From: Tubulanus polymorphus
Lineage: Eukaryota > Animalia > Nemertea
Length of the DNA: 64,000 bases
NCBI RefSeq assembly: GCF_964204645.1
Contig: NC_134036.1
Span: 10,767,859-10,831,858 of the forward strand
Direction of reading: 5' to 3'
Numbering within the stretch: the stretch's first letter is position 1; each line of letters opens with the position of its first letter. Shown here piece after piece: positions 32,783-62,379 of this stretch. The notes under the pieces are model-generated. The model did no database searches, was not told the origin of the DNA, and saw only the letters and a list, made by a program, of their open reading frames with translations. The position numbers and the translations under genes are program-made.

Positions 32783-32854
32783 AGTAATTGGAATATGTGG
32801 GTTTCATACCAGAGGGCGAGAGGGCGAGACACCACTCATCACCACAAGTAATTT
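32783..32854 (+). repeat. Left TIR
   Basis: Exact reverse complement of 49462-49533. Confidence 0.95.
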
Positions 32855-32867
32855 GTTTTCCTTATAA

Positions 32868-33131
32868 ATGGGAGACAGTGAGTTCCAAACAGAAAAAAGT
32901 GATGTTAATGAAAATCAATATTATTGTCCATATTGTAAAAAATACATCGATAAACCTTACATGGAAAATGTTAGAAATTATATTGATTCACTAGAAATAA
33001 AAGATACAATTGAAATTTCAGAAATATGCCGTAGTAAAATTGTGACACACATAAACAGTGAGAACTGTATCTGGATAAATAGATGCTTGTTATATACAAG
33101 GGGAAGTAATCCCACTCATCACCACAAGTAA
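32868..33131 (+). pseudogene. Internally deleted duplicate of the pPolB N-terminus
   Basis: NQYYCPYCKKYID is fused to KPYMENVRNYIDSLEIKDTIEI; both blocks occur about 100 aa apart in ORF 47334-49418. Confidence 0.85.
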
Positions 33132-33147
33132 TTTGTTTTCCTTATAA

Positions 33148-33474
33148 ATGGGAGATAGAAAAGCATTCTTAGCAACAATAAATAACAGAATAAAACCAGC
33201 AAAAAAACAATTTGAAATAAAAAAGTTAGTTGATGTTACAAAAGAAATTGAACATAAAATATTGAAATTAGAAAAGATAAAAACTAAATATGGAGAGAAA
33301 GTATCAGCTAATTTAAGCTACTGTAATGTTAGTACATCACGAGAATTTAAAGTGTTTTTACCCGATAAATGGGTTTCATTGAGTACTGAGGAATTGAAAG
33401 ATTTAGTAGGATTTAAAATAATCTATCATGGGAAAAATGAAGATGGCCATCTTGATTTAGAAATTATTGATTAA
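33148..33474 (+). CDS. Small conserved Polinton protein, possibly OB-fold ssDNA-binding
   Basis: KKL..KTKYG..VFLPDKW..IYHGK pattern; homologue in the second element at about 62000-62340. Confidence 0.55.
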   Translation: MGDRKAFLATINNRIKPAKKQFEIKKLVDVTKEIEHKILKLEKIKTKYGEKVSANLSYCNVSTSREFKVFLPDKWVSLSTEELKDLVGFKIIYHGKNEDGHLDLEIID

Positions 33475-33668
33475 ATTAAAAAAAAATAAATTAATAAAAA
33501 TAATGAATATCTAGAATCCGAAATGACTTATCTGAACAATTTAATTGCTCCGCATAGATGGTGCCATAAACGGCACCCACACAGTGATAGACAAAAGTAG
33601 TGAGATGGTGCCGTACGGCACCCACACGGTGATATTCAATTATTTTTTTTTGCTTTTTTTCTAAAATA

Positions 33669-34037
33669 TTAATCCTTTTTTTTTATTATCAATTTTGGAA
33701 TTTCAGAAGTATTTTCATTTTTGATAGCAGTTGTTTCAGAATTACTAATATCATGAATTTTATTTGATTTCTTATACCAATTACACCCAATCAAAATGAA
33801 TACAATTACAAATCCAACTGTAAAATATAAATATTTATCAAATATTCTGTTATCAGAAGGAGTAGAAATAACAATATTTTCACCATTTTTATTAACATTT
33901 TTATTACTTATTTTTTCTTTTACAGCTTTTTTATATTCTTGTGATTTAATTCCTAATTGTCGAGACCATTCAATTTGTTTCTGAGTTCTCGGTTTTTTCT
34001 TCACAGTTAATTCCTTCACTTCTTTCACCTCGCTCAT
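33669..34037 (-). CDS. Small basic protein with one transmembrane segment
   Basis: 122-aa ORF, TAAATG start, hydrophobic YLYFTVGFVIVFILIG. Confidence 0.65.
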   Translation of the reverse strand: MSEVKEVKELTVKKKPRTQKQIEWSRQLGIKSQEYKKAVKEKISNKNVNKNGENIVISTPSDNRIFDKYLYFTVGFVIVFILIGCNWYKKSNKIHDISNSETTAIKNENTSEIPKLIIKKKD

Positions 34038-34575
34038 TTATTATAGAAATATTTTTACTTTCAATATTTGAAAATGTTATAACCCCAGTTGATAATAATG
34101 TCATAAATCCACCTAATTGAAATGATAAATATCCAATACATTTATTTAATTCAGTCATAACTAAATAATCATTTTTTAAATCGGAATATAATTTATTTTC
34201 ATTTTCAATTGGTAGTATATAATTACATAATTTACTTTAACCTTTTACTACATTTTCTGATATCGCGTCATTAATTCTAGCTGTTCTCGCGGCTTCATAA
34301 ATTTTAAATAATCTAATAATTTCATCTGATTTCATTGTATCTAATTCATTATAAGTTAAATTTTTACCGACAAAATTTTTACATTTTCCAGATGCTATTA
34401 ATATTTCTAATTGATGTTTACAATAAAGATAATATTCATAATTATTATTTGTTGTAACATTATTTAAAGCACCATCATCTGGAGTTAATTTTGTTTCTGT
34501 TATTCCTAAATCATCTAAAGTTTTTTCAATTGGAACATCACCATTTTTAGATTTTATTTTCTTTTCACCTACCAT
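33970..34575 (-). pseudogene. Polinton-like hypothetical gene interrupted by an in-frame TAA at 34237-34239
   Basis: ORFs 34237-34575 and 33970-34158 share a frame and read through VVKG*SKLCNYILPIENE. Confidence 0.65.
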
Positions 34576-34607
34576 TTATATAACAAAAAAATTAGTTGTG
34601 ATGTTGC

Positions 34608-34845
34608 AACTAGAATTTAACTAGAATTTAACTAGAATTCAACTAGATTAACAAGCTAGTTGAAATATTGTTGTTTTTATTTATTTATTGTTAAATCTAG
34701 TTGATTTTTGTTTCAACTACTAACAACTAGAATTCAACTAGAATTAAAATAGATTAACAAGCTAGTTAAAATATTGTTAAATCTATTTGATTTTTGTTAC
34801 AACTACCAATAACTAGAATTCAATTAGATTAACAAGCTAATTGAA
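34608..34845. repeat. Internal non-coding array of AACTAGA / CTAGTT motifs in both orientations
   Basis: About three larger units of AACTAGAATTCAACTAGATTAACAAGCTAGTT. Confidence 0.8.
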
Positions 34846-34846
34846 T

Positions 34847-35455
34847 TTAAATAAATTCATATTTAAATGGGTGTTGTAATCTAAATAGTAATTTTGATCT
34901 TTTAATATTTTTCAACTCATCCATATATTCATTATGTAAATCATGTGGAATAATATCATTTTCCTCAAGTGCATTTTTCATCGATTTTCTATCTTTATTG
35001 TAGAATAAAACTAGAAATCTAATGTTTTCTCTAAAGTCTTTAACAATTGAATTATATTTCTGATTTAAAACCCAAGTTGTTATCCCAAAATGTCTACCAG
35101 AGAAAGCTAAATAACATAACTCACTTTCTCTAATTTTAGAATCATGTAAATTTGCACAATCATCTATGATAAATAATGTATTTGATCCTTTATAAATATC
35201 AATTGCTATTTTTATACAATTATCTAAATTTTCTTTTACTGTTTTAGGATCTAATATAATAAATTTATTATTTCTAGTAATATTTCTATCATAAGTTTGA
35301 TTAAATTCATATGTTGGACAAAATAATACTATATTATCAAAATAGTTTTTGTAAATAGTTTCTAATAAATTTAATATAAAATAAGTTTTTCCACAATTTG
35401 TTACACCAGAAATTAACATATTATGAGGCTCAAATATAAATAATTCCTTATTCAT
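34847..35455 (-). CDS. Genome-packaging ATPase (A32/FtsK-like)
   Basis: Walker A SGVTNCGKT, Walker B LFIIDD, SGRHFGIT..LNQ. Confidence 0.92.
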   Translation of the reverse strand: MNKELFIFEPHNMLISGVTNCGKTYFILNLLETIYKNYFDNIVLFCPTYEFNQTYDRNITRNNKFIILDPKTVKENLDNCIKIAIDIYKGSNTLFIIDDCANLHDSKIRESELCYLAFSGRHFGITTWVLNQKYNSIVKDFRENIRFLVLFYNKDRKSMKNALEENDIIPHDLHNEYMDELKNIKRSKLLFRLQHPFKYEFI

Positions 35456-36583
35456 TTATATATTTTTAATTTTACTTGATAATATCCATTCATTGAATTT
35501 ATCTGGCCATCCAACCCATTTTACTAAAGAATATTTTTTTCTTTTAATAGTTTTTGTTTTTAATACTTTTTCAATTTTATATTCTTGTTCTAGATTTTCA
35601 GTAGTTAAACTTAATTCTTCTTCGTAAAAGTAACCATCAACTTCTTCACCATCTAAATCTTCTAATTTATAGACATATGGTTTTGTTGTTATTACCTTTT
35701 TTATTTTATATATTTCTCTAGTAAAATTTCGATCGTATCCTTTATCAAATATCTTTTTATACTTAGAAATTCTAACATTTTGACCAACTTTAAATTTAGG
35801 TTCACCAAAATCATCTACAAGAAATGCTCCATATAAATTATTCCAAACAATTTCAGCATTTTCAGGTTTTCTAGCATCAATAGGTTTCATTCCAATAGAA
35901 GAATGATAAGAATTATTATATCCTTCTATCAATTTTGGTAAAACATCAATCCATTTAAAAGTATTATTTGCTGTAAAATATTTCCACATTCTTGTTCTTA
36001 ATGTTCTATTAAATCGTTCAACAACTGCTGCTTTTTTATCTGATTTTGTTGAAAAATATTTAATATTATGATTATCTAAGAGTTCATGAACAAGTGAATT
36101 ATCAAATTCTTTTCCATCATCAAATTGTATTTTTTCTGGTTTTAGTTTATCATCCGAAAGAAATTTTCTTAAAACATTTGATGTTTGTACAGCATCTTTT
36201 CTATAAAGTGGGAAGCTCCATACATAACGACTAAAAATATCAATTATATTCAATAACCACCAATAATCATCATTATCTTTCTTAACATTTTTCATATCAA
36301 TTAAATCTCCTTGCCACTGTTGATCTACATAACTTACCATAGTTTTACGAGTTTTATATTTTCTAACAATTTTTTTATGTGTTGTATATGTTGGTTGTTC
36401 TAACATAAATTCATTTATATCTTTATATTTAACTAAATTTTGTGGGATTATCTTATCTAATTTATCTTGTTTTACTTTACGCCATATATTTTTAGTAGAA
36501 GAATAAGCAACCGAACTCTCAGGGTTGTAATATAAATTTCTTAAATATTGTTCTTTAGTATTAGGAGTTTTTTTACCACTCAT
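35456..36583 (-). CDS. Retroviral-like (rve) integrase with C-terminal chromodomain
   Basis: QWQGDLIDM, IDIFSRY, QFDDGKEF, VVERFNRTL; YKIEKVL...LVKWVGWPDKFNEWI. Confidence 0.96.
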   Translation of the reverse strand: MSGKKTPNTKEQYLRNLYYNPESSVAYSSTKNIWRKVKQDKLDKIIPQNLVKYKDINEFMLEQPTYTTHKKIVRKYKTRKTMVSYVDQQWQGDLIDMKNVKKDNDDYWWLLNIIDIFSRYVWSFPLYRKDAVQTSNVLRKFLSDDKLKPEKIQFDDGKEFDNSLVHELLDNHNIKYFSTKSDKKAAVVERFNRTLRTRMWKYFTANNTFKWIDVLPKLIEGYNNSYHSSIGMKPIDARKPENAEIVWNNLYGAFLVDDFGEPKFKVGQNVRISKYKKIFDKGYDRNFTREIYKIKKVITTKPYVYKLEDLDGEEVDGYFYEEELSLTTENLEQEYKIEKVLKTKTIKRKKYSLVKWVGWPDKFNEWILSSKIKNI

Positions 36584-36613
36584 TTATATATCCTTAATTT
36601 TAACTTTATATTT

Positions 36614-37861
36614 CTAATATTGAATACTATTTAATTGTGAATTTACAATATTTAATTGCGCGTCAGATATAATATAAATCTGCATTTTAAAATTTTTGAT
36701 TCCTTTATTCTTTTTCATGAATAATTGTATTCCATCTTTAGTGTTTTGTAGTTTTTTTCCAGAACCATGTAATGAATTATCTTCAGTTGTTCTAAAATCT
36801 AACCATAATGCATATTTATTACCGGTATAATAATCAATTTGATTAATATTACAATTTTCAAATGATTTTACTTTTTCATTCATAAAATGTTTTCTAATTT
36901 CTGGCCATTGATCAATCATTCTCATTCCTTGACAAAATATTTTATTCGCTATTCCTTCGATAGTTATTTCTACTTTTGTTATTTCAGGATTATAATAATT
37001 ATCAACATTTATTGCACCATTAGAATATGTTGCAATAGTAAAAAATATTAATATACCTTTAATAGATCTTCTTGGGAAGTTAATATTCTCATTAATAATT
37101 TCATCATTTGCATTAATAGTTACAGTTTTAAATTTATCAATATAATCATATAATAATGAAAATCCTTGATTGTATTGAGTTTGAATTGTGCTAGCAATAT
37201 TTTCATTAGTTACTGTGTTATATTCTAAACATATATTCGATAATTTATAACCCATATCTTTAACAACGCTAGATAATACAATTTCATTTACAGGAGCAAA
37301 TGTTATCTCAAATATAATATCTTCTTGAATTGCGTATTTATATAAAGGTGCATTATTATTTATCAATTCAAAGTCTAATGGAATTTTATATTTGCTTCCA
37401 TATATACTTTTAATCAAATTATCTACACCATTATTTACTACTGCGTTATTGGCTTCAGATCTTAATTTATTTTGGTTTTCTGATTGAATACCCTGAAATA
37501 TCATATTATTTCTATTTTCTTTAGTTAACCATAAATCTTTATAATGTGAAAATAAATTATAATCATCTAATGAGAAAACTGTTTCTGGACCAATCTTTAT
37601 TGTTAACTTTTTAATCAAATATCTTCCAACATTATCAACAACATAATTATTATTATTACCGATTACTTTTATATCAGCTGATAAATAAATACTATTTGGA
37701 ACATAAAAAGTATTTTGTGTTAATCGAGGAATCCTCACGTATAAAGTTTCATCGGGATTAATATTTGAAGGGTTATGAGTAATTATATGATGTGATCTTT
37801 CTGCTTTAATAGCATTAGATATTCTATGATTCTTCGAAGGACTTATATAACTCCCACTCAT
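36614..37861 (-). CDS. Major capsid protein (double jelly-roll, adintovirus-type)
   Basis: 415 aa, beta-rich; THNPSNINP, NICLEY, RSIKGIL, YALWLDFRT..D..LHGSG and YIISDAQLNI motifs typical of this capsid family. Confidence 0.85.
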   Translation of the reverse strand: MSGSYISPSKNHRISNAIKAERSHHIITHNPSNINPDETLYVRIPRLTQNTFYVPNSIYLSADIKVIGNNNNYVVDNVGRYLIKKLTIKIGPETVFSLDDYNLFSHYKDLWLTKENRNNMIFQGIQSENQNKLRSEANNAVVNNGVDNLIKSIYGSKYKIPLDFELINNNAPLYKYAIQEDIIFEITFAPVNEIVLSSVVKDMGYKLSNICLEYNTVTNENIASTIQTQYNQGFSLLYDYIDKFKTVTINANDEIINENINFPRRSIKGILIFFTIATYSNGAINVDNYYNPEITKVEITIEGIANKIFCQGMRMIDQWPEIRKHFMNEKVKSFENCNINQIDYYTGNKYALWLDFRTTEDNSLHGSGKKLQNTKDGIQLFMKKNKGIKNFKMQIYIISDAQLNIVNSQLNSIQY

Positions 37862-37905
37862 TTATTTAACAAAAAAATTAATTATTTATTTTTTGATATC
37901 ATGGT

Positions 37906-39348
37906 TTACTTGATATTTTTTGATATCATGTTTACTAAACCAAAAATAATAGCACTTACAACTGTAATTAAAAATAAAATAATATGTTCAGCAGCAAAGT
38001 TAAGAATGTTTCCTGCAGATTTCAATATAAAACCAACAATTGATGCAATAACTCCTGGTAATGCTGCAGCAGATTTCTTTGACAGTTCCCATAAATATTT
38101 TGCTAATTTCATTAAACCATCCTTAACTTTATCTTGTATAGAATTATTGCCTGGAGGTTTATCTGGTTTATTGGGAGTGGGAGTAGGAGTAGATTTCAAA
38201 GCATTTGATATTGCTAAACCAATTGTTGTAAATAACATAGTTACAGCTGTTAGAATTGAAAGAATTGTTATTCCTTCTAATTTAAATAATAACTTCATCC
38301 TGTCTTTTAATGATATTTCAGAATTTGGTTTAATCAACAAATCTTTAAAAATAATATTTAATCTATTAATATTATAATCATTTGATTTTAATAATAATTT
38401 AATTTCTTCTTTCTGTACTTCTAAATTATCTTTTAAATTACTAATTTCTTTTTCTAAAAGTAATTCTTTTTGCCTATATTCTATTTCATCAATTACTTGA
38501 TGATCTAAATCAGACTTTAATTGTTCTATTTCTTTATTTTTATCAGTTAATTCTTTTTCCAAATACATAATTTTTTGATCTCTTATACTTTTATTATGTG
38601 CAATTTTATCAGATGCAAGTCTTATACTAATAATTTCTCTAATTGCTTTATCAGAAAATATATCTAAATCTTCTAATTCTTGATCTGTTGCATCAAATAA
38701 TCCATTCGGTAAAAGTTTTTCAATTGGAACTTTATTTGATCTAAATTTACTATTTTTGGAAGTTATATTCTGTTCAGAAGTTGTTTCTGTTTCTGATTTC
38801 TTTTTGATTATTTCAAATAATTCATTAATTCTTTGTTTAAATACATCTATATTATCATCTATTTCTTTTTGTGTAACATCAGTTATTTCATTACTATTAC
38901 TTATTATTTTAATTCTATCTGGTTTTAATTTTTCTAAAGTTGATTCTAATAATATTTTATTTTTATTATTTTTATAAGTGATATAAATATAATAATCACC
39001 TTTCAAACGATAATAACATTTACCATTATTTAAAAATTTCAATTGATCTGCTAAAAGTCCAACGTCTTCATCATTTATGTTAAAATTAGATTTTTCAATT
39101 AAATCTTCTAATTTAGGTATTTTGTTTAAATTATCTAAATCTTGTTTTACTAAATTTGGGTCTAAATTTTCAGGATTTAATTGTGATTCAGCATTTTTAA
39201 TATAATCAGGCATATTTAAATTATTATTATATTCTGGTTCATTACCATCATTAAAACTTGTTTCATCAAAATCAGGTGGTTGTTCATCAGTTATGTTAGG
39301 TTCATCAAAAGGATCCATTCCAATATCTTCTCCACCTTCTACATCCAT
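37906..39348 (-). CDS. Coiled-coil protein with C-terminal hydrophobic helices (putative membrane-active virion protein)
   Basis: Acidic N-terminus, heptad region, EGITILSILTA and KSAAALPGVIASIVGFILK segments, C-terminal TM. Confidence 0.7.
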   Translation of the reverse strand: MDVEGGEDIGMDPFDEPNITDEQPPDFDETSFNDGNEPEYNNNLNMPDYIKNAESQLNPENLDPNLVKQDLDNLNKIPKLEDLIEKSNFNINDEDVGLLADQLKFLNNGKCYYRLKGDYYIYITYKNNKNKILLESTLEKLKPDRIKIISNSNEITDVTQKEIDDNIDVFKQRINELFEIIKKKSETETTSEQNITSKNSKFRSNKVPIEKLLPNGLFDATDQELEDLDIFSDKAIREIISIRLASDKIAHNKSIRDQKIMYLEKELTDKNKEIEQLKSDLDHQVIDEIEYRQKELLLEKEISNLKDNLEVQKEEIKLLLKSNDYNINRLNIIFKDLLIKPNSEISLKDRMKLLFKLEGITILSILTAVTMLFTTIGLAISNALKSTPTPTPNKPDKPPGNNSIQDKVKDGLMKLAKYLWELSKKSAAALPGVIASIVGFILKSAGNILNFAAEHIILFLITVVSAIIFGLVNMISKNIK

Positions 39349-39364
39349 TTACATAATGAAAAAA

Positions 39365-40702
39365 TTAAAATTTAAAATATAATATTCCTCCTATAACAAT
39401 TCCTATACAAGTTATAGCTAATTTAGTATTTTCATGGGATTTATTATCATCATTTAGTTTAATTATATCATGTTGAATTTTATCGGTTTTAATATCACCG
39501 TGTGGATGCCGTACGGCACCATTTTCTATAGTATTGTAATCTTTTATTTTGGAATCATTATTTAATTTAATATTATTAGTTTTAGTTTCTGTTGATTGAA
39601 TATGTTTTTTATTTTTTTCACCTTCCATTAATTTTGGAGCAGTAATAATCTTTTTATTTATATCATTTAATCCAATTGAATTATTTATTGTTGCAGTTTT
39701 AATTAGATTATTATAACCAATTATATTTCCCATCTTTAATACTAAATCATTAGAAATAATTAATAGATTAGGTCCTATACAATAATTTAATCTAATATGT
39801 GATTTATCTAAATAATTTTGATATCTAACAATGTTTTCTGGAATCGATCTATTTTTATCATTATGAATGGAATCTTCAAATAATACTTTGAATTGTTTCT
39901 GCGCATCAAATGAAGTACTATTATTTCCAACTATTGGTGATCTTGTTTCAACTTGTGCACCTAAAATACATATCAAATAAGTTCTAATTGATTGATTTAT
40001 TCTTTGTATACCGGGTTTTGTAAATCCTTCACTATAAGATTCAATAAAATAAACCCAACCATTATTATTATGAATTTTATAATTATGATAAGCTCCAATT
40101 CTATGCATATAATCAATTCTTTTTATTTCATACTGTTCACCAACACCTTGCAATTTACCATGCGCTCTAAAATCGAAATTAATATTTATATTAAATTCAT
40201 TACATATTTTATAAAACTTGGATATATTAATATTATTATCCAATTCTTTAAAATATTTTGATCCAGGTAAAGGGCATTCTAATTCATTTAATATAATTCT
40301 AATTTGAAATTATACATGAAATCTAAATATTGTATGAATGAATTTTAAATCAGAATATTTCAAATTTTTATCTAAGTTATTCAAGTGATCATGCCAACTT
40401 ACACCACAACCAGCTGTTGCACAATGAACAGCAAAATTTAATTGATTCTGCCAATATTTCATATTAGATTTTACTTTATATATATTATATTCATCTCGAG
40501 TAAAAGTAACTTCATATGTATTAAATATATTTTCCATTTTAGAAATAAAATAGTTTGTTTCAGTAACATAAATTTCTAAATTAATCAATGAAGGTAAAAC
40601 TAAATTTTTATATATTATCATGTTACTAAAATCTATTGCTGGAGTATTATATTTATAATATTCATGTGATTTATTATATTGGAAAACTTTTGGAAACCCC
40701 AT
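39365..40702 (-). pseudogene. Conserved adintovirus-type hypothetical gene with an in-frame TAA at 40310-40312
   Basis: ORFs 40310-40702 and 39365-40243 are in frame: WQNQLNFAVHCATAGCGVS...FRFHV*FQIRIILNELECPLP. Confidence 0.75.
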
Positions 40703-40830
40703 TTATATAACTAAAAAATTAATAATTTATTAATTCTTTTAATAATTTATCTTGTTCTTCAACTGTTATATGGCCATTTAAACTTATTATATAATCTAGT
40801 GTGTTCTTTAATTTATTAATTTCTTTTATA

Positions 40831-41154
40831 TTAGATTTTATTTTTTTCTTTATTACTTTTTATATTTAATTTTGAACTTATACCAGTTAAAACACTTGAA
40901 CTTAATCCTAATACACCAATTGATATAGCTAAATGTGTTAATGGACTGAATATTGCTAGAAATGTTATTACAGAACTAATTGTAACCGAACCACTGATAA
41001 TAAGATAATATATAATTTTACTTTTTAAATATTTTTTCTTTTTTATCTTTAAGTCACTTTCAAATTCTAATATTTGTTTTTCTAAATATATTTTTAATTT
41101 AGTTTTATTTATATCATGAGGAATAATATCAATACTATCAACTTTATCTTCCAT
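40831..41154 (-). CDS. Two-TM small membrane protein, probably truncated by a frameshift in an A-run
   Basis: Two hydrophobic segments; an alternative frame continues KEINKLKNTLDYIISLNG. Confidence 0.6.
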   Translation of the reverse strand: MEDKVDSIDIIPHDINKTKLKIYLEKQILEFESDLKIKKKKYLKSKIIYYLIISGSVTISSVITFLAIFSPLTHLAISIGVLGLSSSVLTGISSKLNIKSNKEKNKI

Positions 41155-41174
41155 TTATTTAGCAAAAAAAATTA

Positions 41175-41597
41175 CTAATTAGTAAACTTATAAGCAACAA
41201 ATATAACAATAACTGTTCCACCTAAAATCCAAATTATTTCATATTTCTGTTGTTCTTTACTTGGGGTATAATAATCTGATAATTTAGGTTTGTATAGATG
41301 TAATTTTTCTTTATTTGTTACTGCGTTATATAAACTCATTGCATCATCAACTGATTGAAAATCTCTATGTGAAATCTTCTGATCATATAATTCTTTATTG
41401 ATGTAATCCATATAGTTTTGTCTCTTTTCTCTATATTCTTCTGCAGCTTTATTGTATTTCTCTAACGCTAAGTTATGTCTTCTTTGTTCTCCTAATGAAC
41501 TATTTTTATCAATATGTTTAAATAAATATCCACCACCAGTAAATGCTAAAGCGTTAACAATTGCTGATCCTATAATAGTTATAATTGCAGAAGCCAT
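41175..41597 (-). CDS. Conserved small virion-type protein
   Basis: IGSAIVNALAFTGGGYLF, EQRRHNLALE and KLSDYYTPS motifs; C-terminal TM. Confidence 0.75.
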   Translation of the reverse strand: MASAIITIIGSAIVNALAFTGGGYLFKHIDKNSSLGEQRRHNLALEKYNKAAEEYREKRQNYMDYINKELYDQKISHRDFQSVDDAMSLYNAVTNKEKLHLYKPKLSDYYTPSKEQQKYEIIWILGGTVIVIFVAYKFTN

Positions 41598-41622
41598 TTA
41601 TTTAGCAAAAAAAATTATGCAT

Positions 41623-41838
41623 TTATATGGGAGGAATATATTTTTGTTTTTCCAAATAATCAATAGTTAAATTAGATAAAGTAACTGCTAATGTTAATTT
41701 TAAAATATCATTTATATCAAATCTATCAACATTAACACTTTTGAATACTTTTTTTAATACCATTGAATAACCAACCGTTCCAACTGATAGTAATGCGCCA
41801 TTATATAATCCAGTTATTATCCACTTATTATCACTCAT
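41623..41838 (-). CDS. Small hydrophobic protein
   Basis: 71 aa, TAAATG start, tightly packed with its neighbours. Confidence 0.7.
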   Translation of the reverse strand: MSDNKWIITGLYNGALLSVGTVGYSMVLKKVFKSVNVDRFDINDILKLTLAVTLSNLTIDYLEKQKYIPPI

Positions 41839-41841
41839 TTA

Positions 41842-42195
41842 TTAATTAAAAAAATTACTATCATTAAAATATTTAGTTAACTTAGTGACTATTAATTCAA
41901 CATTTATTTTATTACTAGTTTCATTTGTATATATTTCAATTATTATTTTTTTAATATCATCGATGATAAAATCTTCATCTAATTCATAAAATCTTAAAGA
42001 TTCTCTAATTAAATTAGTAATCTTTTCTACATTTAAAGTTTCTTTATCTATTGTTGTTTCATACTCAAATGTTGTTTCATTAGAAAATGCAATATTTTTG
42101 ATATGTGTAATTACATCATTAATGTTAAATTTCATTTCTTTCTCACGTTTAAAATCAAACCCAAAACATATACTCGGTCCAACAGTTATATTCAT
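41842..42195 (-). CDS. Hypothetical protein
   Basis: 117 aa, TAAATG start, in the gene array. Confidence 0.65.
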   Translation of the reverse strand: MNITVGPSICFGFDFKREKEMKFNINDVITHIKNIAFSNETTFEYETTIDKETLNVEKITNLIRESLRFYELDEDFIIDDIKKIIIEIYTNETSNKINVELIVTKLTKYFNDSNFFN

Positions 42196-42211
42196 TTATA
42201 TAGGTGAAAAA

Positions 42212-42964
42212 TTACTCTTTACATCTTACAACTAATTCATAAATTATAGGAAAGTTATTCAAATCAATTAAGTATCCATTATGATTTCTAATTTCTAATC
42301 TAAAATTATTAAATTGAGGAATACAAGGTTTGAAATCACATTCAGCTAAATTATAATTTATTTGCGTTCCAAATTGTTTAACATTCTTCATTGGTAAAAT
42401 GTTTAGTAAACCAGAATAACAAGTTATATCTTTAGTTGCTTCGAATGTTTTTGTAGGATCGATTAAATTGCAATAAATATAAAAGTGTGTAAAAGGTATT
42501 ATATTTGGTGTAGTATCAACATTTGAATAATATTTATCTGGTGTAATTCCTAATAGTTTAGCTATAGGTTTTTTAACTGAAAATTGATATTTTTCATTAT
42601 GAGCTAACCTTATCTTCATTTTATTAGAATTATCACTTTTCAAAAATCTAATGTTAAATTCAGCATCACTACCTAATTTGATCCGAGCTTTTTTATTAAT
42701 TTCCTGCGCTAATGTATCTAAATTATATAATCCTGGTTTTAAAAATAGATAATTCCATTTATCCTTACTCTTGTTTGAAAAAAATAAATGTTCAAGACTT
42801 TTAGCTGTTATATTATAAAATGAGTTACAAAAACTTATATTAACTAATTTTAAATCTACGCAATTCTTAAATTCTCTATCTAATTGTACTAATAAATTAT
42901 GTGATTTATAATTTGTAAGTTTTCTAGAATCAATAAATATTCTGTATTCTTTCAATTCTACCAT
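42212..42964 (-). CDS. Minor capsid (penton-like) protein
   Basis: IFIDSR, LKPGLYNLDTL, FYIYCNLID, FRLEIRNHNGYLIDLNNFPIIYEL. Confidence 0.8.
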   Translation of the reverse strand: MVELKEYRIFIDSRKLTNYKSHNLLVQLDREFKNCVDLKLVNISFCNSFYNITAKSLEHLFFSNKSKDKWNYLFLKPGLYNLDTLAQEINKKARIKLGSDAEFNIRFLKSDNSNKMKIRLAHNEKYQFSVKKPIAKLLGITPDKYYSNVDTTPNIIPFTHFYIYCNLIDPTKTFEATKDITCYSGLLNILPMKNVKQFGTQINYNLAECDFKPCIPQFNNFRLEIRNHNGYLIDLNNFPIIYELVVRCKE

Positions 42965-43032
42965 TATTTATAACATAAAAAAATTACCGCTCATCACTAA
43001 AAATTAATTTTAATAAAATTTTTCCTTAATAA

Positions 43033-44346
43033 ATGGAAGTGAAGATAGCATGCGAAATTTGTGGTGAACTTCTAAGAAAAAGTAATATGGCTCGACATAT
43101 GAAAAAACATGATGAAAATTATAAACCCCCTAAAATAAACTGTCCAAATTGTAATAAAACATTCTCTAGAAATTATTTCAAAAAACATTTAGAGAAGTGT
43201 AAAAATAATAACTTAATAGTTAATGTTGACAGTAACGAAAGTAATAATAATTCTGTTGAAGTTGAACCTGAAATTATTTGGAAAAGACCTTTCTTATTCT
43301 ATGATAAGGATAATATAAAAGATCATTTCTGTGAGCCTTGTCGAATAAAATATAACCCTGAAAATATAGAAGATTGGGAGAATCATCAATTTCGTAAAGT
43401 ACATATAGATAAAATTTCTAATAAATTTGAAACTGAATTCAATGCAAGAAAAAATAATTTATTAGAAAAAATAAAATATGAGAAAACGTTACCAGATAAT
43501 GAAGAAACAGTTGAAAAGTTAGAAAAACAATATAATGAATTAACAAGAAAAACATATTATTGTAAATATTGTAAATTGATTATTACAACAAGTAATTCAA
43601 ATCTACATGATAGAACAATAAAACATAAAGAAAACGTAAGAAAATACCAAGAGCTTAATGAAGATCTATTACTAATAGATTATAAACAAAAATGCCCACA
43701 ATGTATTTATGCGACCTTAAGGCAAGAAGGTACTGTGTTATTTTGTGTTGATTGTGGATGGCAAAGGAATTTATGGGGTGAAGAAAAAACTAGAAATTTT
43801 CTTATAGAACCAAAATTAAATTATCTTGATGAAATTTTTAAAATATTTTCTATAGAAGATCATACACCAGAATATATGCAATGGCTTGAAAAAATGAAAA
43901 TAATAGAAAATAAAAATGGTGAAATAACTAAAAAAGATATTATAAAAACAATTATTCCACCAACATTTAACAAAAAACAAAAGAAAATGTATTTATATTT
44001 ATTATTTAACGATTATTATGAAAAACCTAAATTAACAGAAGAAGATATGGAAAATATAAAAAAAATATTTAAACAAATATTAATGTATCATTTGGAAAAT
44101 AGAATAACAGATTCAATAAATTATGAATTCTTTTTAAATAAGATTGTAAATTATTTAAACCTAGATATTATAATTCCATTTGATGAATTAACAAACAAAA
44201 AGAAACAAAGAGAGCGAGATGAAATGTGGAACAAGATAGAACTTTATTTAAATGAGAAAAATGGAATGGAAGAAGAACCTGAACAATTAAATGAAAATGA
44301 AGAAGCCAATAGTGATTTCGAGTTTGATGATATAGATCCATTTTAA
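43033..44346 (+). CDS. Zinc-finger protein with C-terminal VLTF3 (poxvirus A2)-like late transcription factor domain
   Basis: Four N-terminal C2H2/matrin-like fingers, a CPQC-x12-CVDCG ribbon, then SINYEFFLNKI...KKQRERDEMWNKI. Confidence 0.7.
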   Translation: MEVKIACEICGELLRKSNMARHMKKHDENYKPPKINCPNCNKTFSRNYFKKHLEKCKNNNLIVNVDSNESNNNSVEVEPEIIWKRPFLFYDKDNIKDHFCEPCRIKYNPENIEDWENHQFRKVHIDKISNKFETEFNARKNNLLEKIKYEKTLPDNEETVEKLEKQYNELTRKTYYCKYCKLIITTSNSNLHDRTIKHKENVRKYQELNEDLLLIDYKQKCPQCIYATLRQEGTVLFCVDCGWQRNLWGEEKTRNFLIEPKLNYLDEIFKIFSIEDHTPEYMQWLEKMKIIENKNGEITKKDIIKTIIPPTFNKKQKKMYLYLLFNDYYEKPKLTEEDMENIKKIFKQILMYHLENRITDSINYEFFLNKIVNYLNLDIIIPFDELTNKKKQRERDEMWNKIELYLNEKNGMEEEPEQLNENEEANSDFEFDDIDPF

Positions 44347-47300
44347 TAACCATAAGGTAATGTTTTTATACCATCATCTGAAATATGCCTTTTATCATCA
44401 AATGGATTTAAACTAGTTTTTTCAACTTCATTAATGTACATCTCATGATCTTCTGATCTTAAACAATTCATCTTGTGTTTCATTACAATTGATTTATATA
44501 AACACTTTATATAATCTTGAAATTCTATATGTTTATCAACCACATGTTTTGTTATTCCTTTTAACTTTTTAGCTTCATGATCTTTTGTTCTGTAACTATA
44601 CATTTTACTTCCTATCCCAACAAATTCAATCATTTCATCACCTCCTAATTCATCTTTAAACTTACCAGGAATCTTTTTATTATCATTACTAAACAATTCA
44701 TGATCTTTGGGGTAATTGCTAAAATCAAAATAATGTTTTAATGTTTTTAAGTCTTTTGTTATATCATTTGTCTTGATTTTTAGTATGTAGGCGTCAGTAT
44801 TGACCGCTATTAATGGAAATCCACAGTTAAATGTACCATCTTCAGTTGATAAATCATAAACATAATCTGTTGGGTTATATATTTCAAATAAATCCTTATC
44901 TTCTTCTGTTAACTCATTTTCTACATGGCTTAAATTAAAGCAATTTGGTTTAGATTTAATCAATCCAATATTCATATTGAAGCCTAATGAATTACATAAT
45001 ATATTTAATCCTGATATAGCAACTTTTCCTTTTTGAGCTAAAGATATTGTTTTGCGGTTTTTGAAACTTTTTGAACCATCTGCAGCATAGAACCGAATGA
45101 AGAACCATTTTCTTAAATTATTTTTTGCATTTAATACATAATCTGGAACTATCTTTTCTTTAGTTGAAGTATTACTTTTCACTATTGCATGAGTGTAGAA
45201 TTCGTTATTATATATATATTTATAGCAAAATCTTTAGGATTATTCACATGTATTCTATAACATTGCGATGATTTCATAACATCTATGATTTTAAATGTTT
45301 TATGTGAATAAACTTCTTCACAGAATTTCTTAATTCTTTCTAATAATTTTAAGTCTTGATTGCATAAATACCAACAATATTTAGTTCCACTAACATAATT
45401 ATACACACCTGCTGAACCATCACCCATGAAAAATCCTTTGATAAAATATTCTTTTTCTTCTAATGTTTCGGGTTCTATATTATAAATATTATTAATTATT
45501 TCATCAAATGACATATGATTCATTCTTGGGAAAAATCTTTTATGTAATAATTCATCTCCAATTTTTATATCAGTTGGTTTTATTTCATTACCATTTTGTT
45601 TAATCAAACTATGGTCTTCAGTAACATCTACAAATCCTAATTTAGTTCTAACTCTATAGATTTTCTTATTTGTTTTATGTCTAATAATATTCTTTAATTT
45701 TTTCCATCCATTTCTTGTCCAAACATCCATTAAACCATTTATTTGTATAAGTTCTTTTTCACCATATGAAATATAAGATTTATTTTGATTAGGAATTATT
45801 TGTGAAATTCTTCTTACCAATATTTTATTATTACATTTTAATAATATTGGGGTGTCAGCCGTTACAGAATCAAAATATAATATTTCTATATGTTTTTCCC
45901 CAAAAAGTGGCTGCAAAACATTGTAATAAAAATTATACATCAATAATTTTTATATTTGCAAAACAGTTGAACCTATAAATATAGGTTTATTAAATTTTAA
46001 TGATGTTCTTTTTAATTTAACTGCTGTTAAATAATCTTCAAATCTTTTATTTCCTAAATGTCTAGGACTTGATTGTAAATGTCTTAATCTTTCAGAATTA
46101 TTTACTAATTCAATATCATTTCTATTTCTAATATTTTCACATGTTTTACCATAAAAACTATTATTCATTAATTTGAAGAAATCTTTTTCAAAATCTGTTT
46201 TTGATATGGTTCTCTGTTGAGTATTGAAATCTATATATTTTTCTAACCACTTCGATTGATTAAATTCAATATATCTATGTACTTTCTTTAATTTCATTCC
46301 TTGTTTTAGATAAAATTTTAACATTCTATAATGAACAATATAATTGTATTTATTATTTTGAGTAAGTATTAATTTTTCTGTAAAAACATGATCTTTCGGT
46401 TTTATTTTCTTCTGGTATTCACTTAAATAACTATCATCTACAGTTAAATGTTCTGGGCAATAAGGTAAGTTTCTTGTTTTAAACTTTATATTTTCAGGAT
46501 ATTCTAAATCAACTACAAAGAAATAACCAATTGGTGCTTCATCTTTTAAACTAATAATTGCGCTTTCCCAATCAGTTTTATCACCATTTTCAACTTCTGT
46601 TAATATAAAATTTTTATATGGTTGAGGTTGCATCATTGCCCAACCATATAAATTATTGGCGTCAATATATAATAATTTATATTCATCATTTGCTTTAAAA
46701 TACCTATCTCCCATAACACCACTAATTCCACCTCTAATTGATTTTTCAAATAATAAAACCATATCTGCTTCTTTTAATAAATCTAATTCTACATTTGTAT
46801 ATTTTAAACCACATTGCCAGGTTAAACCAGGACTAGAATAACAATAACAAGGATCAACATTAAAATGATTCAAATTAACTTCTCTAAATTTTTCAAATAT
46901 GTCAGCTAATATCATAACATCTGATTTTAAATATAAATCAACTAATTCGCCATGATTTTTCATCTTAAAATAGTTCCAAATATTTAATGTTCTATTAAAC
47001 ACTTCGTCTTTCACATACTCCTCTTTTAATTTATCATAAAATTGATCTTTTAATAATTCTGTTACATTAAAATCATTATGTGTTTTATAAAATGAATAAG
47101 GAATTGCGCCTTTATATCTCAATAATTTAAAATCTTGTTCATTTGGATAATAATATCGAGTTATAACAAAATCATTATCAACTAAACTTTTTGATAAATT
47201 ATCTAATGAACTTGCTAGAAATCTATAAGAATCTAAAAATCTAATGCAACCAAATTGAAATGAAATATAATTTTCAGATGTTTTAGCTAATAGTTTAAAA

Positions 47301-49418
47301 TCATATTTTCTTACATTTACACCATTCATAGCATTATATTCTTCTATTTTCTTGATTAATTGCACCCAATTTTCCCGATAATTGTTTTATAAATAGATGG
47401 GTATCATAGCCTGATAAATTATGAAATAATATTGGTACGAAATTAACTTTCTTAGCTTGTAAATTGCAATCTTCATGAGCAGCTCCACGATATTTTGAAT
47501 TCAAATGATCATGATCTCTAACTCTTTTATCAAATGAATAAAAACGTTTTTCACAATAACAACAATGAGTTGCATAATTAAAATCAATTTCATCTTCTTT
47601 TGTCATAACTATTCTTTTATTTTTGTTCAATAATTTTGCAAAATCACTTTTTAATTCAATAATTTTATCACAAAAATCATTAACTACATTTTCACCTCTA
47701 AAAGAAATATATTGACTTTCATATAATTCGGGATAATTTGATTTTATGTAAATTCCATAAGCAGCAGCTCTTAGATGAACTTTTTTAATTGTATTTATAA
47801 TTGGTGGGTCTTGTATTGTGTCTTCATTTAATTCATTTCCTTTATCCATTGATTTTAATAATTGCTTTTTGTTATATATTTCTTTTCTATCTTGATCAGT
47901 TAATTCTTTATTCAACGATTCAAAATCCCCATAAATTACAAATGGAACAATATTTTTAAATTTATGATTAGTAAATTTCAATTTATAATCTTTTTCTGTT
48001 GGCATTATTAATTTACAAAAATCTTTATTATCACATAATTCTTTATGTTTTAATAATGTATTCTCGGTCATAAATTTAGATAAACATTTTCTACATAGAT
48101 AAATTTTACGATGATGATCACTTTCTGTTCTAAAGAATAAATCAATTTGTTTTAACCACACATAATGTTCATTTTCATCTTTTTTATAATATAACAAATC
48201 TATAGCATTTTCATCATCATAATATTCTGTTAAATATAAAGCTTCCAATGTATAATCTTTAATATTTTCACCTTTTGTCTTTGGTAATTGCATTAATTCG
48301 AATACATTTATTTTTAAATTATTAATTTTTTCTATTTTAGGAATCATTTTTATAGTTACTGGATATTGATCAATTTTATATAATGTTTCATATTTCCGGT
48401 AATTTGTTATTCTAAAACTATGCGTCATATCTTCTGTTTGTTGTAAACAACTAATAATTGACCATAGAAAACATTTATTATCTTCATTTTGAACATTTAT
48501 TACTGCTTTTGTTGTAAATGGTAATTTAATATAAGATGATGCTTTAATATCCTTTTCTGTTGTAAAGTTTGAATCATTTTTAAACATTTTATTACTTTTT
48601 GATGTTTTATTCCTTTTTGTATTATAAACATTTAAATCTAAATATATTATTTCATTCAATGTTAAGCCAGAACCCTCAAAATATCTTTCTTCAATATGAC
48701 GTTTAAATTCATTAAATATTTTTTCTAACTTCTCTTTTATTTGTGTTTTTGAAATTATTTCTTCAGAGTGTGTTTGAATATTATAATTCATTTTTTCTTC
48801 TGACTTTATAAAACTTACTTTCCCAGAGATACTAATTTTTGGATATTCAACATCTGTTATCAAATCTAGTATTTTTTCTATTATTTCATTAAATTTACTA
48901 TAATCTTCTATTGTTGTACCTTTAAAAAATCTAAATATAATAGCTGCAGGACCAATTTTACTATGTAATGTTTCTAAGATTTCAATTGTATCTTTTATTT
49001 CTAGTGAATCAATATAATTTCTAACATTTTCCATGTAAGGTTTATTTGAAATGGATTTAGTTTTTGAAGTTGATTCTTTTACTTTTTGAGGTTTATTATC
49101 AAAATAATCTTTTCCTAAAACATTATTACTCAAATTTTGGTGGTGTTTTTGTGATTCGAGATGTCTATTATAATTCCTTTTTACTATAAATTCATTACAA
49201 ACTTCACATTTTATTTCATCCACATTCATATTTTCTAATCGTTCTTTTCTTTCATTGGAATTTTCTGGAGTTTCAAAATCTATTACATTTTTTATATGAT
49301 TTGCAGTTTTTTCATGTCGTGTTTTATGAGATGTATCGATGTATTTTTTACAATATTGACAATAATATTGATTTTTATTGACATTATTGTTTTCTAGTTG
49401 GTGTTCATTCTCCCCCAT
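44343..49418 (-). pseudogene. polB: Protein-primed family B DNA polymerase (OTU-like and Endo VII-like domains), intein-containing, with three lesions
   Basis: DNKCFLWSII..HYVW; VIYGDFES; VRDHDH..YRGAAHEDCNL; FHNLSGYDTH; LYIDANNLYGWAM; KLMNNSFYGK; YFD|TD; KLKGI; PFDDKR. Lesions: 22-bp insertion at about 47357-47384, TAA at 45950-45952, 2-nt slip at about 45210. Confidence 0.95.
44799..45868 (-). mobile_element. Intein with LAGLIDADG homing endonuclease in PolB motif C (about 356 aa after removing a 2-nt slip)
   Basis: Block A SVTADTPILL, block B VDVTEDHSL, KGFFMGDGS and RFYAADGS, block F YVYDLSTEDGTF, terminal Asn followed by Thr. Removal restores ILYFD-TDAYIL. Confidence 0.93.
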
Positions 49419-49461
49419 TTATTAGGAAAAAAATTACTTGTGGTGATGAGTGTTAGGAAAA

Positions 49462-49533
49462 AAATTACTTGTGGTGATGAGTGGTGTCTCGCCCTCTCGC
49501 CCTCTGGTATGAAACCCACATATTCCAATTACT
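49462..49533 (-). repeat. Right TIR
   Basis: Exact reverse complement of 32783-32854. Confidence 0.95.
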
Positions 49534-52500
49534 TAAGAGTGTATTAAAAATGTTCAACCCAACAGGTATTGGATGTTTCAGTAAAATTTCCGGACCAACG
49601 AAAGTTATGAATGAGGAGATACTAAATTCCTAATAAGAAGAATAATTCGATGCTGTTCGATTTTTCAATCAGTTGTATTGATTTGTTTCTTTTTTATTGC
49701 TTATGTTGTCACAATGGAGATTTCAGCAGTTTAGGATATTTTCATCGGACGTAAATTGCCATCTGTTCAGCTTTCTGCCAATTCTTGATTACTGAAATCG
49801 ATGCAACGGTTATAGAATCTTCATACAATTTGCAAATATTTTCAGACATAGACAGGCTTTTTATATGCATTGGATAAACTGAATTTATATAAGTTGTGAA
49901 ATGCTTACATGACGCTTCGAAATTTGGCGCGTAGTAGATATTTGGCCATCCACAATGAATCTACTTCACACCCTCCGTAGTTACGATTAATGAAAAATCG
50001 TCTATTCTCAGTTGTTGAAATAACACTGAAATGCATGAATTTATAATAGGATGTCTTACATAAATACAGAGCCTTTGCGAAAGCAACTGATATATGATAC
50101 ACAAGAAATTGAAAACAAAATATTTCAGACAAAAAGAAACATGTTTACTGTCGTGTAGTGAAAACATATTATTTGAAAATCGGTTTTACAAGCAGATACA
50201 CATACTTACTATCCTTCCATTGAAAAAATGTTAGATTCTGATTCTTTTGATAAATCGTTCCAACTACTAATCATCAATCGTTCCTTATTGAACCAATTAG
50301 TTATTGAAGAACCCGCTCCATTAAATCTGGCTTAGGCAACGGTTTTTCCAGCCTGGTAGAGCTCTACTTGTACCTTGATAGACATAATGTAAATTGTAAC
50401 TGTCATTACTATGAACCTATATTATGATGGTTGGTTTTCACGATAGTTTTATATCTTTTAATGACAAATGTTGCTATAAATGACAATAATTTTGAAAACG
50501 ACGCCACGTCGAACTATCAACACCACGTGATTAAAACACTGACCTCTTTAACATTCATGCTGCCCCATGCATCCACATGAGGACTCTTCCAAACACAGTT
50601 ACATTTTATCGTCGGTTCGAGTCTACTTGGCGGGCATTGGTCATTGTATGGTTTTGTCCACGCTTCATAAACACCTTTATTTGTCCCTTCACTGGCAACA
50701 AACACCAGTCTCCAAGGGGTATCGCCGTACGTAGTCTCGCTAATTTTTACAAGCGGTTTTACATTAACATGTATACAATATATTCCGTATCCGGGATTTC
50801 AATAAATAAACACTTACAGCAGTAATCGTAGACTAACTTACCGCATGATGACCCTAAAATATGAAAAAGGAGTTATCGAAATCGGACAAAAAAAATTATA
50901 ATGCAACATGTTGGGGTTTCTGAACTTCGCGGAATATCCGGATTCTACGGAATTCCCGGATTTTTGTCGGAATCACCGGAATTTATCTAATATTCCCGGA
51001 TTCTTAGTAAAACCCAGAAAAGATCTCGGATGGCGAGCGGACAATTCAATTCAATATTCTATTGATGCAAATTTGGCAGAAAATGTATACAGCGGCAATA
51101 AACAATTTTGCCTCTCACGCAGCTCGTCCAGTCGACCGATTTCCTTCAGTCATTTTAATTTCATCGTTATTGAGGTATGTATAGAATTGGACATCTAAAT
51201 TTACAGAAAATCTTCATTACTGGCGTTGGCGTTTAAATGTCAACTATTATTAGTGCTTAACGTCGATATGTCATGAAACTGTATGCACTCTATGTATGTC
51301 GGTCGTACGACGTAGAAGCTAGTACTACTCTTCTAGGGCCGGTAGGCCTAAGCTTACTTACAAGTTATATCAGGCATTCCTCCAAGGCCAGCTTCCTGAA
51401 CTTTTTAGCTAGCGGTACATTTTATTATTTTTTACTCATTTGAACTAGACCTTCATTCATTTTGCAGGATGCAGGAGAGGCTAGGCCTATGTCATCCAAC
51501 CAGTCTGAGTCAAATTGAATGCGATATATCATGGCCTGATTATTCAACTAATATGTTTTATTAATTCATTCCAGTTAATCACAGACCAACATGTTGCGCC
51601 TTCCAAATTTAAACGCCACAAGCTGTTACACGAACAGCATTTTACAATGCTTTCACAACTTGTTCAGTTTAAGAAGAGTGTTTGAATTCTTGTCCTCCTC
51701 TCAAGGAACAGGTACCATAAGGTAGCGTTGACGCGTTGGACGGCGGAACTTATCACTAGCAATTTTCGCGATTCATGTTTCGCGTAATGTTCGAGAATTA
51801 TGGAACTCTCTTTAACAAAGAACGTTGACAAAGTAGTTCTTCGTTTATTCGAAATCCCAATTCTTCATAGTGTAATTGCATCGGTTGCGTTAGCTTTTTC
51901 CTATGATTGCCTTTGGATTGAACCAGTCGAAATAGGGCCATCCCGTTTGCCAATATCATTGGTCTCGGGTCACGGATATTTTTATTGTGATGGTTAGCCG
52001 AAATCAATAAACGAATCGGGTCCGCTACTGCGAGAGATGATGAATTACAAACCGTAGAACCTGCCGCTCTACGATCATCAATGCGGCGTGTTTTACAAGG
52101 ATTTGATCTCGGTTCATCTCTACACTCGTCGTTAAGTTTATGTTTACTCACAATATATGTACCATTAGAGCTATTCTCGGAGAGTTTATAACCTACGCGA
52201 TGTCTATACATTTCCACTTATTTCGAATATGAACTGAATTTTTATCGGACCTTCCGATTATATCGTACACCGTGCACTAGGGTGGAAGTGACCTGACAAC
52301 AAGCGTACACGACGAACCAAACAGGGCGGACAGTGTTTTACGAGCGAACAAGGTTTCAAAAATCAAACCCAGCGGACAGTGGTGTGATAACGGTATTATT
52401 GATTTATGTTATTGATTTCAAACAGCAGTTCGGTCCATAAATAGAACTGCTGCTGCAAAAGATAACTCAAACTTTGTGACATAAATTAATGTTAAAATGT

Positions 52501-59472: not shown

Positions 59473-60420
59473 TTATTTGATTGAATTTCTACAGCAGATT
59501 TTCATACAGAAATATTCACGAATTTCTCGTCCCATTAAAAGATATATGTAGAAATTTACCACATAATTACACATTACGAATTGTGTGAAAATGTCATATA
59601 GAAATTCTTTCTGTTCCGTAAGGATTGGTAAAAATGCAGCAATAGTGGTTGGAAGTGTGAATATTGCAAATGCGAGTGAAACTGTTACAAGCATCATCGT
59701 TGTACGTTTCGATTTTGTAGTTTTCTTATCAGACGAAAGCATTTTTGTACCTCTGAATAACTGAATAATTATGATAGAATTTGATATCAGAATCGACGAT
59801 AAAGGCAAAACAAAAGCGTAGACACCAAGTGGAGTAAGAAATTTCATTTGGACAATTAATTCATAGTAACATCCGAAAAACTGGTCGGAAAAATGTATCG
59901 ACAAAGTAGCGGGAAGTTGAACCAGTACAGTCACTGTAGTAATTATCAATATAGCAAATCTAGCGAATCTAGGTGTGCATATCAAACGAGAAGTGAACGG
60001 AAAGAGAACAACTGCCGCACGTTCTAGAGATATAGCTACCAATAACCAGGAACTGCTAGAATTGGCAACTGCCATCAATATTTCATATATCTTACAACTG
60101 ATCAGTGAATTCATGATATATACAAGACTAGTATTTAGATTCAATAGAATAAACTGTAAAACAGGCATCAGTGTAAAATTTATGCAGTACAAGAAATCAC
60201 AGACTGACAAAATGACAAGATAGTTAGCGTAAGATAAACTGCGGAATTTGCGACTTGTCATTATAAGAAAAGTAGCTGAATTTCCAAAGACTCCAAACAG
60301 AAACACGATAGGCAGAATGACCAACGACACAGTACGGTAAGTTCCAGACCTGTTCTCCACCGACATTAGAATGATGTAACTGCTATACGTTCGACCAATT
60401 CGAATCTTAGTTGAATTCAT
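59473..60420 (-). CDS. Single-exon class A (rhodopsin-like) GPCR, peptide/chemoreceptor-like
   Basis: Seven hydrophobic segments; GN, LSVCD, C in TM3, SLER..V.FP, FTLP, NFYIY. Confidence 0.92.
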   Translation of the reverse strand: MNSTKIRIGRTYSSYIILMSVENRSGTYRTVSLVILPIVFLFGVFGNSATFLIMTSRKFRSLSYANYLVILSVCDFLYCINFTLMPVLQFILLNLNTSLVYIMNSLISCKIYEILMAVANSSSSWLLVAISLERAAVVLFPFTSRLICTPRFARFAILIITTVTVLVQLPATLSIHFSDQFFGCYYELIVQMKFLTPLGVYAFVLPLSSILISNSIIIIQLFRGTKMLSSDKKTTKSKRTTMMLVTVSLAFAIFTLPTTIAAFLPILTEQKEFLYDIFTQFVMCNYVVNFYIYLLMGREIREYFCMKICCRNSIK

Positions 60421-61810: not shown

Positions 61811-62000
61811 TAGACTATAAGTAATAGGGAATAAGTTGTTTCAAGCCAAAGGTCGAAGGGTCGAAAAATAAATTCTCGCACACTCGAACTTATTTTTCGA
61901 CCCTTCAACCTTTAACTTGAAACAACTTATTCCCTATTACTCTTATAATTTTCATATAATAACTTCTAAAATCAATTTTAATAAAAAATATGTTATTAAA

Positions 62001-62345: not shown

Positions 62346-62379
62346 ATAAAATCAATTTTAATAAAAAATTTAGTATTAA

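Follow-up and report, generated by a model that had tools for sequence, protein, structure and literature searches.

We describe a nemertean Polinton/Maverick element that carries an intact gene for a fusion of four zinc fingers with a domain related to VLTF3 (vaccinia A2), a poxvirus factor for late transcription, and in which nearly every gene starts at a promoter of the poxvirus late type. VLTF3 as a Polinton gene class is already published (available part of PMC11131425); what is new is the conserved finger fusion together with the element-wide pox-type promoters, and the promoter result is stronger than the gene result. Judging from sequence and a structural model, we propose tentatively, at slightly less than an even chance, that the fusion protein is the element's own late activator, acting on the RNA polymerase of a putative co-infecting pox-like virus.

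The window (the whole 64-kb stretch of DNA that was analysed) is animal DNA, with a rhodopsin-family receptor gene at 59473–60420 (Pfam). A low-G+C island at ~33–49.5 kb was identified as a Polinton/Maverick because TIRs, a 6-bp target duplication, protein-primed DNA polymerase (pPolB), rve integrase and packaging ATPase are all present; the element spans 32783–49533 (16.75 kb), and its features are listed in Table 1. For a double jelly-roll capsid protein there was only a weak Capsid_N match (Pfam, E 0.026); the capsid gene, assigned by size and place, is called probable. SLATT appears as an accessory gene of such elements in figure legends of 10.64898/2026.06.19.733378 and PMC8502044. Among the Pfam matches of the element (20 + 9 proteins scanned) there was no cysteine protease, no RNA polymerase and no A1/G8-like family; the apparent lack of a cysteine protease fits group 2 Maverick-Polinton elements (10.64898/2026.06.19.733378).

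Table 1. Features of the Polinton/Maverick element (window coordinates)
Feature	Position	Strand	Evidence or remark
Left 6-bp target-site duplication	32777-32782	.	Right copy at 49534-49539
Left TIR, with partly deleted copy of PolB 5' end	32783-33042	.	Pairs with 48953-49533
A32-like packaging ATPase	34847-35455	-	Pfam Pox_A32, E 1e-13
rve integrase with chromodomain	35456-36583	-	Pfam
Probable major capsid protein, T-run TAAATG start	36614-37861	-	Size and place; weak Capsid_N match, E 0.026
SLATT-like gene, broken	40831-41154	-	Weak SLATT match, E 0.034
Putative promoter: A-rich stretch, T-run, TAAATG overlapping start codon	43011-43035	+	
Zinc-finger-VLTF3 fusion gene, 437 aa, intact	43033-44346	+	ORF
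Zinc fingers 1 (C2H2, aa 7-26) and 2 (C2HC, aa 37-56)	43051-43200	+	Finger 1 resembles second PolB finger
Zinc finger 3 (CCHH, aa 100-124), spaced like U1/matrin fingers as judged by eye	43330-43404	+	Ligands kept in P0002, P0006, P0007, P0003
Zinc finger 4 (U1-type, aa 177-198), homologous to first PolB finger	43561-43626	+	Pfam zf-U1, E 2.7e-6
C4 zinc ribbon; aligns with the A2L ribbon in VLTF3 of entomopoxviruses	43693-43755	+	
VLTF3 helical domain, predicted single cyclin (TFIIB-like) fold	43795-44274	+	
PolB, protein-primed, two N-terminal zinc fingers and LAGLIDADG intein, three breaks	44343-49418	-	

Copies of the element were studied through raw reads of the same species. Read depth over the element is 8–38 times that of the flanks, and thus the element is a multi-copy family in the genome. 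Depth falls from ~17–38 times flanks at 40.5–42.5 kb to 7–9 times past ~42965, where 269 loose read ends mark a point at which reads depart from the reference. In other copies the capsid side is shared and the VLTF3/PolB side is different. With reads at 90% likeness, the capsid module reaches ~28 times flanks versus 8–9 times for the VLTF3 gene, a ~3-fold difference; the depth of PolB is similar to that of the VLTF3 gene.

The PolB and VLTF3 genes are convergent (tail-to-tail). The intein of PolB (~44814–45868, minus strand) sits in the catalytic motif, between YFD and TD, and is absent from the PolB of a close relative at locus L001, whose PolB core is 84% identical. At the left end of the element (32783–33474) a 47-nt duplication of a promoter drives an ORF of 108 aa that fits no known family, and a 35-nt G+C-rich inverted pair (33605–33639 and 39488–39522) lies inside the otherwise A+T-rich element, with one copy in a coding region. 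Outside the element we observed a 1152-aa ORF without a Pfam match (6914–10372, plus strand) and a second, heavily decayed Polinton-like piece at ~61950–64000 (plus strand); the PolB DNA of this piece is ~78% identical to that of the main element, and its gene starts have an A-rich motif upstream, like the promoter of the VLTF3 gene.

An open VLTF3-like reading frame for a protein of 437 aa was confirmed on the plus strand. The CxxC..CxxCG ribbon, expected at about 43690, starts at nt 43693 (C221, C224, C238 and C241), and the SINYEFFLNKI...W motif starts at nt 44113, with W399 at nt 44227. The original prediction described this as the only large plus-strand gene, which is true within the element but not within the window, given the 1152-aa ORF on the same strand. 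Its statement that four other genes are broken was correct: breaks occur in PolB (three), in the genes at 34575–33970 and 40702–39365 and in the SLATT-like gene at 41154. The weight that it put on the VLTF3 gene remaining open is not supported. At a rate of ~6 breaks per ~15.6 kb of coding sequence, a gene of this length has a probability of 0.60 of being open, and five other genes of at least 200 aa (ATPase, integrase, capsid, a 480-aa and a 250-aa gene) are open too. Comparison across copies, suggested earlier as a check, gave no significant purifying selection: the best-supported 40 of ~80 read variants in the gene comprise 10 synonymous and 30 non-synonymous changes, with omega of ~0.6–0.9, not significant. 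For these reasons the argument from intactness to selection was rejected. None of the same 40 variants changes a zinc ligand; raw reads cover the gene evenly, and the single indel listed for them falls in its last codons.

The C-terminal half of the protein is VLTF3 (poxvirus A2-like) by profile and model, with a zinc ribbon followed by a predicted cyclin/TFIIB-like domain. Three C-terminal cuts matched Pox_VLTF3 (PF04947) at E 3e-6 to 2e-5 with 27.5, 25.8 and 24.7 bits, the first two above the gathering cut-off of 25 bits; the match spans profile positions 83–164 of 168 only, and PF04947 was not listed when the full-length protein was scanned against Pfam. The four ribbon cysteines align with those of P0005, a protein that matches PF08792; PF08792 was not listed for the element's own ribbon in the Pfam scans of the C-terminal cuts. 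NCBIfam gave no match for the fusion protein and the PDB sequence search no significant one. Atlas features gave 0.88 (180 shared) in favour of the VLTF3 identity, which we take as a lead only; an Atlas search with aa 80–215 returned only unnamed or generic zinc-finger clusters, all below 0.9.

An AlphaFold model of the protein built from nine aligned rows reached a pLDDT of 78.6 (a single-sequence model was poor, with pLDDT 44.7, and its fold search was uninformative). The top Foldseek match of the model in BFVD was cowpox VLTF3 (E 4e-7, TM 0.63), and five of the 10 matches at E<=0.001 were named VLTF3 or late transcription factor, a ranking that leans pox-ward because entomopox rows were included in the model's alignment. 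Foldseek against PDB gave nothing at E<=0.001, and PDB searches brought up no solved structure of A2. The top VIA match was yeast TFIIB (Z 7.3, under the caution line of Z 8; rmsd 3.1, 92 aligned), with cyclin folds in most of the top rows. The kinship with poxvirus A2 claimed at the outset is upheld by the two PF04947 matches above cut-off and by the best Foldseek match, and the fold comparison recommended with it recovered VLTF3 and, under the VIA caution line, TFIIB-like folds rather than an unrelated family.

A fold of this kind would also suit a helper-free nuclear factor, in which host RNA polymerase II would be brought in, together with host TBP, by the TFIIB-like domain, and the fingers would give sequence specificity. 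That the element integrates and is multi-copy is in keeping with such a role; TFIIB, however, has two cyclin repeats, and the model has one. Mriyaviruses, which keep VLTF3 and have no RNA polymerase, are proposed to be nuclear (available part of PMC11253617), a precedent that favours the nuclear factor and weakens the case for a late activator.

The closest source of the domain was addressed by profiles built without Polinton rows. Four related domains scored 33, 31, 27 and 18 bits with the pox profile versus 14, 7, 3 and −4 with the giant-virus profile, while shuffled sequences scored at most 7.5. The pox set was chosen through the VLTF3 fusion protein and is rich in A+T codons; the giant-virus set was chosen by one motif, with 15 of its 77 rows kept after thinning. 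Iridovirus, asfarvirus, mriyavirus and PLV VLTF3s are left out of the sampling for both the profiles and the tree, and the tree of 25 rows is an unrooted three-group star with long branches. The pox affinity of the domain is suggestive only.

Turning to the N-terminal half, finger 4 and its PolB counterpart are 38% identical over 39 aa (E 7e-7), and in comparisons of fingers 1 and 4 with the PolB fingers none of 5000 ligand-fixed shuffles reached the score in either case. Finger 3 has no special likeness to the PolB fingers (2244 of 5000 shuffles reached its score); the predicted resemblance of the N-terminal fingers to those of PolB thus stands for fingers 1 and 4 and fails for finger 3. An exchange of fingers between PolB and the VLTF3 gene, in either direction, is likely from these sequence comparisons.

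A homologue search over 1.84 billion representatives returned four matches (P0002, P0003, P0004 and P0005). P0002 and P0003 have the whole architecture in common with the fusion protein. Identity to it is 46–47% for P0002, P0006 and P0007 and 34% for P0003, and all 20 ligand positions are kept, one of them with a Cys-to-His change in P0003; for the VLTF3 domain the values are 50% (P0002) and 37% (P0003). Recurrence of the architecture and ligands at such distances indicates that the fusion is old. The possibility of a chance fusion in one copy was rejected, given the even read depth along the gene and the same fusion in relatives. At L001 the gene for P0002 and an intact PolB gene lie tail-to-tail, in the same layout as in our element. 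P0005 is a canonical VLTF3 (PF04947 E 1e-24), ~62–67% identical to an entomopoxvirus VLTF-3. P0004 (281 aa) contains the VLTF3 helical domain and is without fingers 1, 2 and 4, an aligned ribbon and most of the N-terminal part. Single-protein homologue searches yielded none of 796 and none of 228 candidates and no phage record, and the viral contigs searched held no relative of the VLTF3 domain, the capsid protein, P0002 or the alignment 'A2'. In the marine metagenome run X5 a small share of matches was found, in short pieces only; hence no habitat is claimed.

The common history with PolB raises another explanation: a captured VLTF3 with PolB-derived fingers could travel with the PolB module and serve replication or RNA binding, leaving the TAAATG promoters wholly to helper factors. 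The genes are tail-to-tail in both the element and L001, with similar depths here; fingers 1 and 4 are PolB-like; U1-type fingers often bind RNA, and the protein has one; and the Polinton contig L009, described below, has the promoters without a visible VLTF3. A mere passenger would not lead one to expect, however, that no part of the protein is better conserved than the VLTF3 domain (in P0002 and P0003) or that all four ribbon cysteines are kept, and we consider this explanation improbable.

The promoters are the most distinctive property of the element. TAAATG was found at 14 of the 15 gene starts versus 39 of 637 other ATGs (p 1e-16); the fifteenth start is TAAATAATG. T occupies position −10 in 12 of the 14 TAAATG starts, and gene starts have a richer T-run upstream than background TAAATG sites do (p 4e-6). 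The element's starts thus have the form of poxvirus late promoters, TAAAT(G) over the start codon and T at −10 among Ts; in vaccinia, late promoters have the consensus TAAAT with G after it, and the T at −10 is conserved (available part of PMC11980589). The TAAATG promoters assumed in the original prediction are therefore real, and they are much rarer in other Polinton-like contigs. In 12 other contigs bearing pPolB or integrase, TAAATG occurred at two of 127 ORFs (L008 and L016, repeats of L017 and L007, left out; shadow ORFs included in the counts); in 120 giant-virus loci it occurred at 18 of 177 ORFs, and in two entomopox-like loci at 3/8 and 3/7. Two trivial sources of the motif were rejected, namely stop-start overlap (1/14) and A+T richness (39/637 in the background, 38% G+C in L009 and 4/64 in low-G+C giant-virus loci).

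Sorting the 15 starts by eye, we distinguished two promoter subtypes: an A-rich stretch at −15 to −12 (VLTF3 gene, ATPase, integrase and a 122-aa gene) and a long T-run (capsid gene and most other genes of the element). The VLTF3 starts of the L001 and L002 relatives have the same promoter shape upstream, including the A-rich stretch. In vaccinia, A2L and A32L are intermediate genes, and intermediate promoters are A/T-rich further upstream (the latter from the available part of PMC11980589).

The partial Polinton contig L009:1-9034 (38% G+C) has TAAATG at six of eight ORFs and, by sequence, is a second member of the TAAATG type; VLTF3 was not found in these 9 kb. Its PolB start is finger-like and its integrase is preceded by a protease-like extension (both by eye). 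The link between promoter and VLTF3 is made less tight by this contig and by the ~3-fold higher depth of the capsid module; TAAATG promoters may work without the fusion factor.

Several gene starts are TATAAATG, with a TATA-like hexamer inside, a point for the nuclear factor with its polymerase II. With a TATA box just before the ATG, polymerase II transcripts would start ~25–30 nt downstream of the start codon, so that this placement suits polymerase II poorly, whereas T at −10 and TAAATG fit the poxvirus late consensus. On balance we regard a helper-free nuclear factor as rather unlikely.

The late-type promoters also bear on the dominant-negative decoy that had been offered as a second possible role, in which the protein would compete with the helper's A2 and damp the helper's late transcription, which would protect the host or free resources. 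Such a decoy would silence the element's own capsid gene and most of its other genes along with those of the helper; moreover, neither the ribbon nor the helical domain is truncated, and three lineages conserve both. The distance to entomopox VLTF3 (~24% identity), divergence from the L001 protein (46% identity) that is faster than that of the PolB core (84%) and extra fingers that could sequester partners speak for a decoy, yet the idea is disfavoured and its probability appears low.

The reading that we favour, an own late activator, draws on the VLTF3 identity, the conserved fusion, TAAATG at nearly all starts and the finding of no RNA polymerase family in the element. Transcription of the element would be by a polymerase of the pox type, with start sites inside TAAAT. 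The VLTF3 gene would be made first, from an A-rich intermediate-like promoter of the kind also seen at the ATPase and integrase genes; the VLTF3 protein would then join the helper polymerase and further late factors wherever a T-run TAAATG promoter precedes a gene, as at the capsid and others. Through the fingers, of which two were probably copied from PolB or to it, the factor could be held on nucleic acid of the element or on protein partners, and such tethering would bias transcription toward the element. The original suggestion that the polymerase of a putative helper is redirected to TAAATG promoters is thus consistent with the promoters. A wider proposal, possible but held with distinctly less confidence, is that this lineage of animal Polintons consists of virophages of undescribed pox-like invertebrate viruses, with pox-type intermediate and late promoters and a captured A2 re-aimed by PolB-derived fingers to turn the helper polymerase onto capsid genes.

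No virions of animal Polintons have been seen, according to the available part of 10.64898/2026.06.19.733378. Late promoters of the pox type at nearly all genes, combined with a conserved late factor of the element's own, name a candidate class of helper, and dependence of animal Polintons on a helper becomes testable by 5'-end mapping and reporter assays. The result would suggest that poxvirus-like viruses occur in animals from which none have been described, and the protein offers a natural A2 variant for studies of poxvirus late transcription. If the virophage proposal is true, TAAATG starts would serve as a sequence flag for sorting Polintons by helper type.

Reports of VLTF3 in related elements cover polintoviruses of stony corals (PMC11131425, with reference to Krupovic and Koonin 2016), PLV groups (10.64898/2026.06.19.733378) and a MELD virus (figure legend of PMC8502044). 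As in our element, VLTF3 appears there as accessory cargo of a Polinton-type element; the available parts of these sources give no domain architecture, zinc-finger fusion or promoter analysis. The available parts of PMC11161782, 10.64898/2026.10.13.758929, 10.1101/2023.08.22.554363 and 10.1101/2024.03.23.586382 contain no passage on a Polinton promoter or VLTF3. In the accessible literature, outside subscription journals, Repbase reports and bioRxiv supplements, we found neither pox-type promoters nor the zinc-finger fusion in animal Polintons.

Among canonical VLTF3s, those of poxviruses (VLTF3/vaccinia A2, PF04947 and PF08792; for example the entomopox proteins P0010–P0012) are the best Foldseek and phmmer matches of the element's protein and have in common with it a C4 ribbon followed by the same helical domain. 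The element's protein differs from them in sequence (~24% identity), in its 210 extra N-terminal residues with four fingers and an acidic tail, and in being encoded by a Polinton in which no RNA polymerase family was found. To TFIIB and the cyclin fold its likeness is a suggested one (VIA Z 7.3): a zinc ribbon and, behind it, a predicted bundle of cyclin-box helices, in a single repeat in the model. TAAAN initiators are used by yeast linear plasmids that have their own polymerase (available part of PMC6211774).

Among Polinton-like elements of animals, the PLVs found with entomopoxviruses (PMC11296320) are likewise tied to poxviruses; in the portions available, VLTF, transcription factor and promoter are absent from the main text and VLTF, late transcription and promoter from the supplement. 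These PLVs encode an adenovirus-type protease, whereas none was detected in the nemertean element. Mavirus and CroV have late promoters in common (available part of 10.1101/068312). Like the nemertean element, mavirus integrates, encodes pPolB and rve integrase and has promoters modelled on the late motif of a large virus. Mavirus is proposed to rely on the late factor of its helper, while the nemertean element carries a late factor of its own, in an animal and with a motif of the pox type.
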